Positions 3,682-33,249 of a stretch of 64,000 nt of DNA are shown here, in pieces. The stretch covers positions 40,735 through 104,734 of the forward strand of contig CALXVM010000003.1 of assembly GCA_944392105.1 (NCBI GenBank), written 5' to 3'. Made by a program: the position numbers and the translations under genes. This DNA comes from an uncultured Clostridia bacterium. GTDB lineage: Bacteria; Bacillota; Clostridia; TANB77; CAG-508. Positions within the stretch are counted from its first letter, which is position 1; every line of letters begins with the position of its first letter. The notes under the pieces are model-generated. The model saw nothing but the letters and a program-made list of their open reading frames with translations, did no database searches and was not told the origin of the DNA.

Positions 3682-4821
3682 TTAGCTTTTATCTTCTCTA
3701 TGTGTTTCTATTTTTTCTTGTTTTAATTCTTTTTCAAATTCATGAACATTTTTTCTAATTCCAAATATATCTTTATAGCCTATGGCAAGTAATGCCAAAA
3801 CTAGAATTGCAAATGATAATGCTTTCCAAATCCCGCTGTCTAGAAGAACAACTGCAAGCATTCCAAATGTAGCTGTTATTCCATATAGCATAAATACTGC
3901 TTGTTTTTGTGTATAACCTTTCTGCATTAATCTGTGATGTAAATGACCTTTATCTGCTTTAAATACTGCTTTTAAAGACTTGCCATTTTTTATTCTTCTA
4001 AATATAGCAAATAGCGTATCTAAAATTGGTAATGCAAGAACTATTATTGGTGCTATTAAAACTAATGCTGTATATGTTTTTGCAACTCCTAAAATAGATA
4101 TAACTGCAAGTGAGAACCCTAAAAAGTTTGAACCTGTGTCTCCTATAAATGTTTTAGCAGGGTTAAAGTTATATGGTAAAAATCCTGAAATTGCTCCACC
4201 TAATGCTGTAATTAGCACTATAGCAATTACTGGAGAACCATTTAATGTAAATATTATTAGTAATGATATACAAGAAATTAAGCTTATTCCAGAAGACAAC
4301 CCATCTAGTCCATCTATTAAATTAATAGCATTTGTAACACCTACAATCCAACAAACTGTAATAATATACGATAAAACTATATTAAGTTCTGCTTGTCCAT
4401 TTAAAAATGGTATTTCAAAATTTTCTATCCTTATGCCACAAGCAACTACAACTAGTGCTGCAATTATTTGCACAATTAGTTTAGTTATGCTATGTATTCC
4501 TTTTGTATCATCTATAAAACAAGTAATTCCTAAAATTATAATTCCTATAAAAAATCCTAATAATTTAAGCCATAGCTGATCTTCTGCAAAAAGTGCTATT
4601 TTTCCTTCTATGCTCATGCTTATTAAAAGGTAAATTGTTGAAACAAAGAAACCTGCTATAACTGCAATTCCTCCAAGCCTTGGCATTGGCTTTTTGTTTA
4701 CTCTTCTATCATTTGGAACATCTATAGCTCCATATTTTTTGGCTATTCTCATACTAAATGGTGTAACAACAAACGCTGTAATTAAGCCTAATAAAAATGC
4801 AATTGCAATATCTCCCCACAT
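3682..4821 (-). CDS. polyprenyl-phosphate N-acetylhexosamine-1-phosphate transferase (MraY/WecA/TagO family)
   Basis: ORF track gives 3682..4863; the start is taken at MWGDIAIAF (ATG 4821) behind GAGGGAGGAA. It has about 10 TM segments and the NAINLIDGLDGL motif typical of the family. Confidence 0.85.
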   Translation of the reverse strand: MWGDIAIAFLLGLITAFVVTPFSMRIAKKYGAIDVPNDRRVNKKPMPRLGGIAVIAGFFVSTIYLLISMSIEGKIALFAEDQLWLKLLGFFIGIIILGITCFIDDTKGIHSITKLIVQIIAALVVVACGIRIENFEIPFLNGQAELNIVLSYIITVCWIVGVTNAINLIDGLDGLSSGISLISCISLLIIFTLNGSPVIAIVLITALGGAISGFLPYNFNPAKTFIGDTGSNFLGFSLAVISILGVAKTYTALVLIAPIIVLALPILDTLFAIFRRIKNGKSLKAVFKADKGHLHHRLMQKGYTQKQAVFMLYGITATFGMLAVVLLDSGIWKALSFAILVLALLAIGYKDIFGIRKNVHEFEKELKQEKIETHREDKS

Positions 4822-5525: not shown

Positions 5526-6698
5526 TTGATAGAACATGAAAGGATGAACTTTATAATGAATAACAAGAAAAATATTTTAATAACACAAATACATATGGCT
5601 GTTGGTGGTATAGAAACAGTTTTACTTAATTTATTAAATAGCTTAGATAAAGACAAATACAATATTGACCTAGTACTTTACTATCCACGTGGAGAATTTA
5701 TAGATAAAATTCCTTCTTGGATTAATGTTATTCCTGTATGGGATAACACAAAACATAAAACCTTTTGGAAAGACATAATAATGTCAAGAAATATTGTTAA
5801 AAGAGTTTTAAAAAATTTATTAGTAAATAATTTAACAGTTAAACATTTTGTATCTAAAAAACAATATGATGTTTCTATATCTTTTTGTGGGTACCATGTA
5901 TTTTCAAATGCTTTTGCTGCAAAATCTAATGCTAAAAAGAAATTAATATGGGTTCATGCAGATTTTGCAAAACAATTTAAATTAAGAGAAGAATTTAGAA
6001 AACAATTTAAAAAAATATATAAACAATATAAATATTTCGATAAAATTGTATGTGTTAGTGAATCTGCTTGTGATGAATTTAAGAAATTCAAGCCAGAACT
6101 TTCTAATAAATTAGACTATTGCTGGAATATAATTAAAGAAAGAGAATATCCAGACTCTAACGAAAATATAAAATTACAAGACGGATTTAATTGCATTACT
6201 ATTTCTAGATTAGTAAAAACAAAAGGTATAGAAAAACTAATAGACTTAGCTAAAATGATAAAAAGAGATAATTTAAAATGTCATCTATATGTTGCAGGAG
6301 ACGGTGCTCTTCGCCCATGGTTAGAAGAACAAATTAAAGAAAATTATCTTGAAAATTATATAACATTACTGGGAAATGTCATTAACTTAGTTCCAGTATT
6401 CAAAAAATGTAACTTATATATTTCACCATCAGATTTAGAAGGATTACCTACAGTCATTGTAGAAAGTCTGTTAGAAGGAATCCCTGTTATTGCAACACCT
6501 ATAACCGGTACCATGGATATATATAACCACATGGCACCTCAAGGTTCTATGATTCTCTCAAAAGATACTTCTGCAGAAAGTCTATACGAATGTTTAAAAA
6601 CAGCATTAACTGCCTCTCCTTTTAAACCTTTTAAATTAGATATTGATAAAATAAATTCAGAAACTTTAAAAAGGTTCGAAGCTTTTTTAGGAAATTAG
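5526..6698 (+). CDS. GT4-family (GT-B) glycosyltransferase
   Basis: C-terminal EGLPTVIVESLLEGIPVIAT (E-x7-E) motif and an N-terminal GGIETV loop. The true start is probably ATG 5544 or 5556. The last two codons and the stop (GGA AAT TAG) lie inside the repeat element at 6690. Confidence 0.8.
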   Translation: MIEHERMNFIMNNKKNILITQIHMAVGGIETVLLNLLNSLDKDKYNIDLVLYYPRGEFIDKIPSWINVIPVWDNTKHKTFWKDIIMSRNIVKRVLKNLLVNNLTVKHFVSKKQYDVSISFCGYHVFSNAFAAKSNAKKKLIWVHADFAKQFKLREEFRKQFKKIYKQYKYFDKIVCVSESACDEFKKFKPELSNKLDYCWNIIKEREYPDSNENIKLQDGFNCITISRLVKTKGIEKLIDLAKMIKRDNLKCHLYVAGDGALRPWLEEQIKENYLENYITLLGNVINLVPVFKKCNLYISPSDLEGLPTVIVESLLEGIPVIATPITGTMDIYNHMAPQGSMILSKDTSAESLYECLKTALTASPFKPFKLDIDKINSETLKRFEAFLGN

Positions 6699-6985
6699 GG
6701 ACAGGTCATTTCTTCCCGATTTGGGAAATTAGGGACAGGTCACCATTTCTAAATTTAAGAAAAAATAAATTATTTATATAAAAAAAGAGTAGTATTTTTC
6801 CGTTCAACTGCGGACGCACAGCTACTTAAAATTTGTGTGAACACAAATTTTAAGACCTTGTTTCACTAAAAATACTACTCTTTTTTATGAATTATATATA
6901 ATTAAACCTATTTTCTGTAAATTTATAAAGCGTGACCTGTCCCTAATTTCCCAAATCGGGAAGAAATGACCTGTCCCTAATTTCC
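6690..6985. mobile_element. MITE-like nested-palindrome element, full copy A (296 bp)
   Basis: Perfect 54-bp terminal inverted repeats: 6690..6743 GGAAATTAGGGACAGGTCATTTCTTCCCGATTTGGGAAATTAGGGACAGGTCAC and its exact reverse complement at 6932..6985. Each TIR holds two direct copies of GGAAATTAGGGACAGGTCA. The interior carries an 18-bp-stem hairpin (6781..6886) that encloses a second hairpin (6825..6854). No ORF. A near-identical copy lies at 59019..59322. Confidence 0.85.
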
Positions 6986-28564: not shown

Positions 28565-30316
28565 CTATTTTTTGTCATTTAGAATAATATGTACATCATC
28601 AAGTTGCTCTTTACTTACTCTACTAGGAGCTCCCATCATTACATCTCTTGCTTTTTTGTTTTTTGGGAAAGCAATTACTTCTCTTATATTCTTGCTATCT
28701 GCAATTAGCATAACCATTCTGTCTAAACCTGGTGCTGCTCCTGCATGAGGAGGTGTTCCATATTGAAATGCATTATATAAAGCCCCAAATTTTGTCTTAA
28801 CATCTTCTTCTGTATATCCTGCAATTTCAAAAGCTTTTACCATTAATTCTGGATTATGGTTTCTTACTGCACCAGATGCAACTTCATAGCCGTTGCAAAC
28901 TGCATCATATTGATATGCTAATATATCTAATGGATCTTGATTATTTAATGCTTCCATACCACCTTGTGGCATTGAGAAAGGATTGTGATTAAAATCTATT
29001 GTTCCTTCATCAGATAATTCATACATTGGAAAATCTACTATAAAGCAGAATTTATATACATTTTTTTCTATTAAATCTAGTCTATTTCCAATCTCAATTC
29101 TGACTAGTCCTGCTATTTTTTGTGCTGTTTTAAACTCATCTGCTATAAAGAATATGCTATCTCCGTTTTTTGCTCCTAATTCTTCTAGTCCTTGTTTTAC
29201 TTCGTCTGTAATAAATTTAGCAATTCCACCTGTGTAGTTTCCGTCTTCTAATTTTACCCAAGCTAAGCCTTTAGCTCCCGCTTCGTTTATTGCAAATTCA
29301 TTCATATTATCAAAGAATTTTCTTCCTTGTTCTGCACCATTTGGTACAATAATAATTTTAACTGTCTTGCCTTTAAACGCATTAAACTCTGTGTTTTTAA
29401 ATAATTCTGTTGCATCTTGTATAATAAGTGGATTTCTTAAATCTGGCTTATCTATTCCGTATTTTTCCATAGCCTCTCTATAAGGAATTCTTACAAATGG
29501 TGGTTTTGTTACCTCCCAATTGGTGTGCTTTTTAAATACTGTTGTAAATATCTCTTCCATAGTAGAAAGCACATCTTCTTGCTCTGCAAAGCTCATTTCA
29601 AAGTCTAGTTGATAGAACTCACCTGGTGCTCTATCTGCTCTAGGGTCTTCATCTCTAAAACATGGAGCGATTTGATAATACTTATTAAATCCAGAAACCA
29701 TAAGCAATTGTTTAAACTGCTGTGGGGCTTGAGGAAGCGCATAAAACTCCCCTGGATGTAATCTACTTGGTACTAAGTAGTCCCTTGCTCCTTCTGGTGA
29801 TGAGTTTGCCAAAATTGGAGTTTGAATTTCTTTAAATCCCAACTCATTCATTTTATCTCTTAATGTTTTTATAATATCACTACGAAGTAAAATTGTTTGG
29901 TGTAATTTATCATTTCTTAAGTCCAAAAATCTATATTCTAAACGTAGGTCTTCACGTACATCTCCTGCTTTGTCAGAATTGACTTCAAAAGGTAATACAT
30001 TTTTACATTTACCTAAAACTTCTATTTTCTCTGCATCTATTTCAATTTCTCCTGTTGGAATTTTGTCATTTTTATTTGACCTTTCAACAACATTTCCTAC
30101 AACTTGTATTACGCATTCTGTTACAACATCTTTTAAATCTTCGTCTGTTATGCTACTTTCAGAAGATATTACAATTTGTGTAATTCCAAATTCATCTCTT
30201 AAATCAATAAACTTCATTGAACCTAAGTTTCTAATTCTTTGTACCCATCCTGCTAATGTTACTTTTTCTCCTACATTTTTTATTGTTAATTCTCCGCAAT
30301 TATGATCTCTATACAT
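28565..30316 (-). CDS. aspS: aspartate--tRNA ligase
   Basis: The start is MYRDHNCGEL at ATG 30316 behind AAGGAGAG; the ORF-track extension to 30412 reads into the repeat element. Class II motifs FRDEDPRADR and GLDR are present, along with the OB anticodon-binding N-terminus. Confidence 0.92.
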   Translation of the reverse strand: MYRDHNCGELTIKNVGEKVTLAGWVQRIRNLGSMKFIDLRDEFGITQIVISSESSITDEDLKDVVTECVIQVVGNVVERSNKNDKIPTGEIEIDAEKIEVLGKCKNVLPFEVNSDKAGDVREDLRLEYRFLDLRNDKLHQTILLRSDIIKTLRDKMNELGFKEIQTPILANSSPEGARDYLVPSRLHPGEFYALPQAPQQFKQLLMVSGFNKYYQIAPCFRDEDPRADRAPGEFYQLDFEMSFAEQEDVLSTMEEIFTTVFKKHTNWEVTKPPFVRIPYREAMEKYGIDKPDLRNPLIIQDATELFKNTEFNAFKGKTVKIIIVPNGAEQGRKFFDNMNEFAINEAGAKGLAWVKLEDGNYTGGIAKFITDEVKQGLEELGAKNGDSIFFIADEFKTAQKIAGLVRIEIGNRLDLIEKNVYKFCFIVDFPMYELSDEGTIDFNHNPFSMPQGGMEALNNQDPLDILAYQYDAVCNGYEVASGAVRNHNPELMVKAFEIAGYTEEDVKTKFGALYNAFQYGTPPHAGAAPGLDRMVMLIADSKNIREVIAFPKNKKARDVMMGAPSRVSKEQLDDVHIILNDKK

Positions 30317-30426
30317 ACATATCTCTCCTTTTTTGGAAATTAGGGACAGGTCCCAATTTCCGGTTTTCAGAAATTGGGGACAGGTCACGATTTCCAAGTG
30401 TGTCGTGCACACCGTTTACGACATAT

Positions 30427-30455
30427 ATTATACACCGGATATCCGTAGTTAGCAA
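30427..30455 (-). promoter_or_regulatory. promoter TTGCTA-17-TATAAT inside element C, reading toward aspS
   Basis: On the minus strand, the -35 is at 30455..30450 and the -10 at 30432..30427, with a 17-nt spacer. This is the only recognisable promoter between the terminator and the aspS start. Confidence 0.5.
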
Positions 30456-30491
30456 GAGGATTTTGTTAAGCTTATGCTAATAGGTAAAAAT

Positions 30492-30528
30492 AAAAAATAC
30501 TAATCTCTTTCTGAAATTAGTATTTTTT
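30492..30528. terminator. bidirectional Rho-independent terminator inside element C (ends the adhE transcript)
   Basis: 12-bp stem AAAAATACTAAT / ATTAGTATTTTT with an A-run before and a T-run after. Confidence 0.7.
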
Positions 30529-30645
30529 AATTAATCTATATATTTTATAATACAATTTTCTCAATACACTCTTGAAATTCTTTTTGAAAGTTATTTTTTC
30601 GTGACCTGTCCCCGATTTCCCGATTTGGGAAATTGGGACCTGTCC

Positions 30646-33249
30646 CTAATTTCCATAGTAGCTATCTAATAATATTTGTTTTAGTTCGCTAACTAGTGGA
30701 AGTCTTGGGTTTGCTGTTGTGCATTGGTCTTCAAAGGCTCTATCGGCAAGCATATCTACTTTTGCTAGGAATTCTTGTTCATCTATTCCTGCTTCTTTAA
30801 ATGATTTTGGGATGTTTAAATCATTGTTTAATTTTTTAATTTCTTCAATTAATGAGTTTACTCCTTCTTCATTTGTGTATGCAGGGAAGTTCATCCTTCT
30901 TGATAAGTCTGCATATTTTTGGTCTGCTATAAAGTATTCATATTTAGGAAATGAGACAAATTTTGTTGGCATTTGGCTATTATATCTTATTACATATGGT
31001 AATAGTATTGCATTAATTCTTCCATGTGGCAAATGGAATTCTGCTCCTATTTTATGAGCTAGTGAGTGGTTTATTCCTAAGAAGGCATTTGTAAATGCCA
31101 TACCTGCTATTGTACTTGCATTATGCATTTTTTCTCTTGCTTCTTTGTTACTTCCATTATTGTATGCTTCTCTTATATTTTTAAATACAAGTTCTACTGC
31201 TTTTTCTGCTAGTCCATCTGTGTAGTCTGATGCCATATTTGAAACATAGCTTTCTATTGCATGTGTTAATACGTCCATCCCTGTATCTGCTGTAATTGAT
31301 TTAGGTAGGCTCATAACTAAGTCTGGGTCAACTATTGCTACATCTGGTGTTAATTCATAATCTGCTAAAGGATATTTCTTATTTTGAGTTTTATCTGTAA
31401 TTACTGCAAATGATGTTACTTCTGAACCTGTTCCAGATGTTGTTGGTATTGCTACCATTTTTGCTTTTATTCCCAATTTAGGGAATTTATATGTTCTTTT
31501 TCTTATATCCATAAATTTAAGTTTCATACCTTCTGGGTCTGCTTCTGGGTGCTCATAAAATAGCCACATTCCTTTTGCTGCATCTATTGGGCTTCCTCCA
31601 CCTAATGCAATAACTACATCTGGCTTAAACTCTTGCATTAGTTTTACACCTTTGTTTATTGTATCAAAAGATGGGTCTGACTCAACATCTGAGAATATTT
31701 CTGAGTGAACATATTCTTTTCTCTTTCTTAAATAATATAAAATTTTATCAACATATCCTAACTGTACCATTGATGGATCTGTTACTATAAATGCTCTTGT
31801 TATATCTGGCATTTTTTCTAAGTATTGAATAGAACCTGCTTCAAAATATATTTTTTCTGGAACTTTAAACCACTGCATATTTACCCTCCTTTTAGCAACT
31901 CTTTTTATATTTATTAGGTTTACACTTGATACGTTTGCTGTTGTTGAATTTCCTCCAAATGTTCCACATCCTAAAGTAAGTGATGGCATATTAGTATTGT
32001 ATATATCACCAATTGCTCCATGTGTAGATGGTGAATTTACTATAATTCTTCCTACCTTTACTGTTTCGGCAAATTTTTGAATTGTATCTCTATCTTCTGA
32101 GTGTATAACTGCAGAGTGTCCCATTCCTCCAAATTCTATTAATTTTTCTGCTAAATCTATTCCTTCATCTGAATTTTTAACAATATAGTATGCAAGTACA
32201 GGACTTAACTTTTCTTTTGAAAATGGATATTCTATACCTACACCATTTTCTTTTAATACTAAAACTTTTGTATCTTTTGGAACTTCTATTCCTGCTTCTC
32301 CTGCTATTTTATATGGACTTTGACCAACTATAGCAGAATTTAAAGCCCCATCTTTTTCTTTTATAAACATTGTATTTCTTAGTCTACTTGTTTCTTCTTC
32401 AGATAAGAAATAGCAACCTGCTTTTTTCATTAATCTTTCGAATTCATCTTTAATTTCTTCGTCTACTATAACAGATTGTTCTGATGCACAAATCATTCCA
32501 TTGTCAAATGATTTTGAAAGTACTAAGTCATTTACAGAAGTTTTTAATTTAGCAGTTTTATCTATATAACATGGTACATTTCCTGGTCCTACACCTAATG
32601 CTGGCTTTCCGCATGAGTATGCAGATTTAACCATTCCGCTTCCACCTGTAGCTAAAATTAAATTCACCCCAGGATGATTCATAAGAAGTGTTGTTGCTGT
32701 AACTGATGGTTCTTCTATCCATAAAATACAATTTTCTGGTGCACCTGCTTTTATAGCAGCATCTCTTAAAATTTTTGCTGCTGCCACACTACATTTTTGT
32801 GCTGATGGATGAAAGCCAAAAATTATAACATTTCTTGTTTTTGCTGCAATTAATGACTTAAACATTGTTGTTGAAGTTGGATTTGTAACTGGCGTTACAC
32901 CTGCTATAATGCCAATTGGCTCTGCAATTTCTTCATATCCTTCTTCTTCGTTTTCATTAATTACGCCAACTGTTTTATCATACTTTATGCTATGGTAAAT
33001 ATATTCTGTTGCAAACATATTCTTAGTTATTTTGTCTTCGTAAATTCCTCTTCCTGTTTCTTCAACTGCCATTTTTGCAAGTTCCATATGATGTTCTAAT
33101 CCTGCCATTGACATTTGTTTTACGATATTATCTATTTGGTCTTGGTCCAATCTCATATATTCTTTAGATGCTGTTTTGGCTTTTTCTACTAAGTCATCTA
33201 TCATTTTGCTAATTCTGTTTCTTTCTTCTTCACTAACTGGATTTGCCAT
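30646..33249 (-). CDS. adhE: bifunctional acetaldehyde-CoA/alcohol dehydrogenase AdhE
   Basis: 867 aa: an N-terminal ALDH domain and a C-terminal Fe-ADH domain ([10 protein letters not shown], HxxxH region). AAAGGAGG RBS. The last two codons plus the stop lie in the right terminus of element C. Confidence 0.95.

Follow-up and report, generated by a model that had tools for sequence, protein, structure and literature searches.

Most described systems that pair repetitive extragenic palindromic (REP) sequences with a REP-associated tyrosine transposase (RAYT) are proteobacterial. In those of Escherichia, Pseudomonas and Neisseria, known as REP/BIME–RAYT (bacterial interspersed mosaic elements), REPtron or REPIN–RAYT systems, each genome holds tens of short imperfect palindromes, which favour the 3' ends of genes and frequently form inverted pairs (PMC3733652; PMC2817692; PMC3116915), and a single-copy, vertically inherited HUH-Y1 gene has inverted repeat copies on its two sides. 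The repeats come in species-specific variants and are absent or decayed without the transposase; REPIN populations decay after RAYT loss (bioRxiv 10.1101/2021.07.10.451892), and REP termini often give a TAG stop to the flanking open reading frames (ORFs) (PMC3733652). RAYT-like genes flanked by longer terminal inverted repeats (TIRs), several of which share the motif GGGGWSAS, are called TIRtrons or TIRYT; their repeats make up moderately abundant families and occur singly, in dimers or in clusters (Di Nocera et al. 2013, PMC3733652). RAYT group 1 is reported in Clostridia (Bertels et al. 2017, PMC5581495). These traits have counterparts in the material described here, which concerns the spacer between adhE and aspS in a stretch of 64,000 nucleotides (the window) from an uncultured gut Clostridia bacterium. 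An initial annotation had described this spacer as one self-contained unit, "element C". From the sequence comparisons that follow we propose, with a probability of roughly 0.8, that "element C" is made of two inverted REP/TIR-type modules placed around the native aspS promoter and terminator and linked to a Y1 transposase, and we file it among the REP/TIRtron-type repeat systems, a kind already known, with uncultured gut Clostridia as its host.

The window corresponds to contig C3:40735-104734 of the source genome (G000; 1.50 Mb, 27.9% G+C, 31 contigs), whose nearest named relatives by AspS similarity are human-gut metagenome-assembled genomes (MAGs) of the "Clostridium sp. CAG:273" type. AspS similarity to the window is 97% at locus L001 (MGYG-HGUT-04539), which represents the sister species G045, and 96% at L002, which together with L082 and contigs L168, L169 and L172 represents a CAG:273-type relative. 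The adhE gene (30646-33249, minus strand, 867 aa, NF010378 match of 1409 bits) is followed downstream by aspS (28565-30316, minus strand, NF001750 match of 779 bits). The true start of the latter is the ATG at 30316, the raw ORF start (GTG at 30412) being dismissed; the Shine-Dalgarno (SD) sequence AAGGAGAG (30329-30322) that precedes it and the start codon (30316-30314) span 30314..30329 on the minus strand. A metagenome contig (L166) encoding an AspS 98% identical to ours has an arrangement identical to that of the window, and a short one (L171) carries its aspS-side half, so this arrangement, present in independent assembly, is not a MAG assembly artefact.

As the initial annotation had claimed, the 320-bp spacer is bounded by two inverted repeat copies. 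Its termini (30334-30390 and 30599-30655, 57 nt) are 86% complementary, and the 27-mer GGAAATTAGGGACAGGTCCCAATTTCC occurs at 30335 on the plus strand and at 30654 on the minus strand, with an expectation of 0. Each terminus consists of two units of about 34 nt, spaced by 34 nt, with the palindromic core GGGACAGGTC, for which 14 matches were found in the 64-kb window against 0.21 expected. The adhE-side module (30599..30654, minus strand) reads GGAAATTAGGGACAGGTCCCAATTTCCCAAATCGGGAAATCGGGGACAGGTCACG and matches the family profile over its full length (positions 1-53, nhmmer E-value 1e-17). At its outer end it runs over the adhE stop and the two codons before it, read as GGA AAT TAG on the minus strand, as had been noted before; the TAG (30646..30648, minus strand) falls on module positions 7-9, where relatives have TAA or another last codon. 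The aspS-side module (30335..30395, plus strand) includes a partial extra arm, ..ACGATTTCC, and separates the native leader from the SD, its outer end stopping 5-6 nt short of the latter.

The two modules belong to a family with 83 exact core matches in 47 loci of the 1.5-Mb genome, in which a search with a profile built from the copies detected 51 full-length modules, plus partial copies. The module is palindromic, 53-55 nt long, with the consensus (TT)GGAAATTAGGGACAGGTCCCAACTTCCCGATTTGGGAAATTGGGGACAGGTCA, and is laid out as a (TT)GGAAATTAG tail followed by a long imperfect hairpin with the core GGGGACAG; this core is found in the second unit of nearly all modules and fits the GGGGWSAS motif of the TIRtrons. 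Folding of the module as single-stranded DNA predicted a free 5' tail, TTGGAAATTAGG, and one long imperfect hairpin. A T precedes the module at position -1 in 40 and at -2 in 45 of the 51 copies. In around 20 of them a co-oriented ORF with 80 codons or more is closed in frame by the GGA AAT TAG of the module, 13 more begin between -3 and +2 nt from a stop codon, and 4 abut the SD of a gene reading away from them (aspS, C10:4444, C13:47409 and C9:6106), which means that around 37/51 abut a stop codon or an SD. Since each copy hugs a gene boundary, a spacer that has one at each of its ends takes on the look of a TIR-bounded element, and this is the simplest account of the earlier statement that C forms the entire spacer. 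Within the module, the central loop exists in two mutually reverse-complementary forms, CCCGATTTGGG and CCCAAATCGGG, in a fixed frame (for example, window 30361-30371 vs 30617-30627), and the A/G at position 8 is swapped between the module units (TTAG..TTGG against TTGG..TTAG).

Two genes with a PF01797 domain were found in the genome. One of them, at C23:19954-20751, is a single-copy HUH-Y1 gene, probably of the RAYT/TIRYT type, encoding a protein of 265 aa with HVH and YIHYNP motifs that scores 53 bits on PF01797 (cut-off 23) and 19 bits on the model of the insertion sequence (IS) family IS200, NF033573 (cut-off 55); its only sequence match in the PDB is the E. coli TnpA-REP (4ER8), and the HUH and YIxxNP motifs of the two proteins align. 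The gene lies between a gene ending in ..LSLGN and radA (region C23:19745-20834; L142), flanked by the inverted palindromes GGAAATTGGGACCAGATCTAAATTTC of a sister subtype (GGGACCAGATC) with around 39 arms genome-wide. In G045, a homologue with 62% identity occupies the same locus upstream of radA with exact main-family modules at both sides, whose outer ends directly adjoin the stop codon upstream and the SD of radA, a geometry like that of C. Proteins 50-57% identical are found at the same locus in G013 and G016 with diverged repeats (GGTAATT..GGGGAC..), and neither a transposase homologue nor modules were found in G018 and G046. In a first pattern search the exact repeat was present in 0/40 relatives, a result explained by the species-specific variants and not by absence of the system, and a full-text literature search with the core sequence returned unrelated primer matches only. 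At the sequence level, these data show that the modules are associated with the C23 transposase, which presumably spread them through the genome. The second Y1 gene (C23:2164-2841, 225 aa) has no obvious flanking repeats.

The palindromic core and the two units 34 nt apart could also be expected from sites for a DNA-binding regulator or a nucleoid protein, with no link to a transposase or to mobile DNA. However, the repeats flank a Y1 transposase gene in inverted orientation, co-vary and vanish with it, and are located at gene 3' ends instead of promoters, so we regard such binding sites as extremely improbable.

The interior of the spacer (30396-30598, 203 bp) has no second copy in the genome. 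Reading from adhE, it contains the 3' tail of a decayed gene, ending in ..NNFQKEFQECIEKIVL and a stop codon (30545..30592, minus strand), which is native, non-repeat DNA without matches in a Pfam search, followed by an intrinsic-terminator-like hairpin, also native (30488..30532, minus strand), with a 17-bp A/U-rich stem, arms at 30488-30507 and 30513-30532 that are 90% complementary, and a U run. A terminator scan based on G+C called nothing, this AT-rich hairpin included, and the hairpin was accepted on folding and conservation. The aspS promoter, TTGCTA-17-TATAAT (30427..30455, minus strand), has 10/12 consensus matches and is the best match of the region, a match that is not significant alone in such AT-rich DNA (2 sites found vs 4.0 expected). 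The interior is completed by the stretch of the predicted aspS leader that is native (30396..30426, minus strand) and contains a small hairpin, GGTGTGCACGACACAC.

In the CAG:273-type relative (L002/L082, L168, L169, L172), the repeat-free adhE-aspS spacer is collinear with the window interior. It shows, in this order, a decayed ORF tail, ..FQKEFQECIEKIIL and stop, belonging to a relic gene that is longer than in the window, then the terminator hairpin, TTGCCA-17-TATAAT, the leader and the SD. No modules were found at adhE-aspS in L168, L169 and L172, and in the alignment with L002 the aspS-side module appears as a clean gap of about 50-60 nt between leader and SD. The terminator stems of the window and of this relative differ by paired substitutions on both sides, as read from the alignment (AAAAAA/UUUUUU against AAGAAA/UUUCUU, and UUUC/GAGA against UUUU/AAAA). 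Five species have this promoter upstream of aspS, as TTGC(T/C)A-17-(gg)TGTATAAT in L001-L004 and as TTGAAA-17-TGTATAAT in L005, and it is kept in L003 and L004, which have neither adhE upstream nor a module. Because the interior is single-copy and collinear with a repeat-free spacer and the promoter is kept, the terminator and the promoter belong to aspS and its old upstream neighbour. Comparative sequence evidence thus shows that the interior (relic tail, terminator, promoter of aspS and the initial ~30 nt of its leader) is ancestral host DNA. In L004, an own palindrome with the core GGGGACGGTTC is located upstream of the aspS promoter (~3830-3930).

The two copies were also found to be separable. 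In G045 (L001) both modules are present, but 2.9 kb and a pilin-like gene of 636 aa lie between them, and homology to the window resumes only at the aspS promoter. In contig L167 a promoter-leader-module-SD-aspS block follows an unrelated gene, and no partner for its module lies within 1.4 kb. The locus is thus present in three states among close relatives, with both copies, one or none, and by these sequence comparisons "element C" is not a unit. The 636-aa protein (L001 1378-3288), with a prepilin-like N-terminus, repeated Ig/Fn3-like segments and a Cys-rich C-terminus, is found between adhE and aspS in the G045 sister species only. In L170, a metagenome contig of a CAG:273-type strain, another gene replaces adhE upstream of aspS; it natively ends in ..KSGN (GGAAATTAA), and the breakpoint is inside a hairpin-core repeat.

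The initial annotation had read the spacer as a self-contained insulator cassette. On such a model a single mobile composite, similar to a miniature inverted-repeat transposable element (MITE), would have inserted with its own terminator and promoter. The inverted termini do bound the spacer exactly and are both of one inner-flank subtype, and true composites of ~295 bp with a common interior exist elsewhere (A, D and C1:71453), the G045 orthologs of the A and D spacers being different, native, terminator-bearing spacers. Nevertheless, the C interior is single-copy and orthologous to a repeat-free spacer, its promoter is maintained in species lacking both the repeat and an upstream adhE, and its termini occur singly (L167) or 2.9 kb apart (L001); furthermore, they are of a common solo subtype and only 86% complementary, whereas the A termini are near-identical. 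Such a cassette is, from these sequences, already largely refuted, and we consider it highly improbable. The hairpin and the TTGCTA-17-TATAAT motif are where they had been placed; what failed is their attribution to the element, as the first is collinear with the L002 spacer and the second is ancestral and accompanies aspS. The term "bidirectional" applied to the terminator has no practical meaning either, as no plus-strand gene reads into the hairpin. Nor is C a "variant" element, its interior being unique, whereas A, D and C1:71453 have another interior and another terminus subtype.

Regarding these composites, A, D and C1:71453 (~295 bp) share a homologous interior of ~170 bp and a distinct terminus subtype, ..GGTCATTTCTTCCC.., and by sequence they are real copies of one composite. 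The orthologous G045 spacers of element A (window 6690-6985; L258) and D (59019-59322; L251) contain a native hairpin terminator, and there the genes on either side stop 1-2 codons past the junction (..LL K, ..KI G, ..CV EN, each before the stop); in G000, a composite of ~296 bp replaces the whole spacer including those last codons, and this has the appearance of a replacement more than of a simple insertion. Another repeat family, with ~12 copies, was detected at window 6781-6886 and 59100-59220, at C15:49690-49900 and at L002 3455-3580, in either orientation and with or without flanking modules. Its conserved core is formed by CGACTGCGGACGCACAGCTAC, a hairpin TTAAAATTTG..CAAATTTTAA and GACCTTGTC, at the tip of a long A/T-flanked stem, and Rfam gave generic hairpin matches only.

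Other classes of element were tried and rejected. A MITE derived from a DDE-type IS does not account for the whole of C, as the interior is single-copy and the flanks (TT...AT) do not form a direct duplication. An IS630-type, TA-targeting MITE was discarded because there is no TA duplication, the flanking TT being inverted and not direct. The copies are dispersed without spacers, unlike a CRISPR-like array, and stand among housekeeping genes with no integron-type cassette array seen, unlike integron attC sites.

The C-terminus of AdhE was compared among relatives, as the element had been claimed to supply the end of this gene. In 30 same-genus loci AdhE ends in ..DSYYGN, ..YYGK, ..YYGKEV or ..YYGNEV, and in the more distant L052 it ends in ..YYGN (GGT AAT TGA); in the nearest module-free relative the gene ends with TAT GGA AAT TAA. 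As the YYGN/GK ending is genus-wide and the Gly-Asn end older than the repeat, the module overlaps an ancestral end, and only the change from TAA to TAG is attributable to it. Own palindromes directly 3' of the adhE stop are found in L093 (G002), GGGGACAGTCCC, and L107 (G052), GGGGACAGACCCC.

Elsewhere, the GGAAATTAG of the G000 modules replaces the last 1-2 native codons, for which relatives have AAATAA, CAATAA or GAGAACTAA. The orthologous gene ends of module-free relatives are often near-copies of this 9-mer, such as GGAAACTAA, GGAGAATAA, GGAAAATAG, GGAAATTAA, GAAAATTAG and GCTAATTAG, taken from orthologous sites L113-L141 (G018, G046) and L246-L262 (G045). Judged by sequence, these near-copies could be either decayed remnants under coding constraint or preferred targets. 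If they were targets, insertion would not be random: the Y1 transposase or a homology-guided conversion could pick stop-proximal sequence resembling the 5' tail of the repeat and place modules to the nucleotide where translation starts or stops, either 4-6 nt away from an SD or in register with the two final codons, so that gene ends would be re-occupied and rewritten time and again; the inverted pairs, both the one at adhE-aspS and the one around the transposase gene, would then be selected as insulators processed by RNase III. We consider this combination of targeting and selection distinctly unlikely.

Several observations weigh against the proposal of two transposase-linked modules around native signals. 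The C23 protein reaches 72.4 bits on NF047646, the REP-associated tyrosine transposase model, with a curated cut-off of 80, and its gene is flanked in G000 by the sister subtype GGGACCAGATC and not by the main type. The conserved tag of REP–RAYT systems is GTAG/GTGG (or CGTC), whereas here TTAG/TTGG precedes the GGGAC stem, with the same A/G alternation and another first base. In the CAG:273-type relative, adhE is followed by GGAAATTAAGGACGG, running on as ..TAAGGACGG, which could be a decayed module or pre-existing similarity, in such a way that it could stand for loss or for gain at the adhE end. Finally, the two window copies share the subtype-specific inner flank ..GGTCACGA, and in G045 no difference separates the copies at adhE-aspS over the 58 nt that were read in each, so that the two copies may have a paired origin or have undergone gene conversion instead of being unrelated insertions; a paired origin or gene conversion would still not make the interior cargo.

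Compared with the described REP–RAYT systems, the host here is an uncultured gut Clostridia lineage with 28% G+C, the unit is a double palindrome of 53-55 nt, the transposase is longer (265 aa) with a C-terminal extension, and placement is tighter, with ~40% of the copies in register with the last two codons. The group 1 and TIRYT systems are described as having modest repeat families, whereas here there are ~51 full modules and ~20 sister-subtype units in 1.5 Mb. The resemblance to the Correia elements (CREE) of Neisseria is a functional analogy only, limited to boundary inverted repeats, location in 5' untranslated regions (UTRs) and paired ends cleavable by RNase III. Correia elements are units of ~100-150 bp with 26-bp TIRs, a TA duplication and no link to a Y1 transposase, and they carry promoter parts inside, whereas in C promoter and terminator are host DNA.

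In accordance with the initial annotation, no T-box leader was found upstream of aspS: T-box (RF00230) searches gave no match even at E<=10 in 30250-30720 and none at gathering score in the window. Across the window Rfam had no match at gathering score, and relaxing the threshold to E<=10 added nothing beyond spurious, miRNA-like hairpin matches on the modules. The aspS-side module shares with T-boxes its position upstream of an aminoacyl-tRNA synthetase gene, without a covariance-model match. As aspS also lacks a T-box in 14 relatives and T-boxes are present at other genes of the G000 genome, this absence is ancestral and the norm of the clade, and the element did not cause it.

Regarding how the two modules could act, the outer end of each lies against a gene boundary, one over the adhE stop and one upstream of the aspS SD. 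The aspS-side copy, lying between the predicted promoter and the SD, would be part of the 5' UTR, as proposed earlier; transcribed from the native promoter, it is predicted to form a stable hairpin in a leader of ~105 nt. In the predicted fold the terminus is one long imperfect hairpin with the SD unpaired (dG -32.2, z -3.45), so of the earlier description its distance to the SD holds and the pair of small hairpins does not. The adhE-side copy would form a hairpin over the adhE stop and the 3' end of its coding region; it lacks a U tract, the native terminator being located ~100 nt further on. In a transcript reading through this terminator the two copies could pair as a duplex of ~57 bp, which is predicted with dG -132 kcal/mol and z -14 and could be a substrate of RNase III.

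It could therefore be asked if the modules have been exapted as gene punctuation, as selected 3' stabilisers or attenuators and 5'-UTR structures, the inverted pair forming a duplex open to RNase III cleavage, by which aspS would be uncoupled from read-through of adhE in a Correia-like way. Consistent with this, 37/51 modules abut a stop codon or an SD, both adhE-aspS sites are occupied in G000 and G045 though only ~4/17 tested sites are shared, the SD is left unpaired, the copies are predicted to pair over ~57 bp in read-through RNA, and other species have their own palindromes right after the adhE stop (L093, L107). However, the family is species-specific with a fast turnover (around 13/17 G000 sites are empty in G045, and with so few orthologous sites occupied in both genomes the family has turned over since the two split), close relatives without modules at this locus keep the same promoter and terminator, and the adhE-side module lacks a U tract and is followed by a separate terminator. 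Selected punctuation is, on balance, unlikely.

These results remove the interpretation of the spacer as a mobile promoter-plus-terminator cassette, a reading that was tempting and wrong, and the boundary-hugging copies explain why whole spacers in the G000 genome resemble TIR-bounded elements. A repeat-transposase system of the REP/TIRYT type is thereby documented in uncultured, very AT-rich gut Clostridia, and the adhE-aspS locus, with its three states, is a natural experiment on the effects of hairpins at a 5' UTR and at the 3' end of a coding region.

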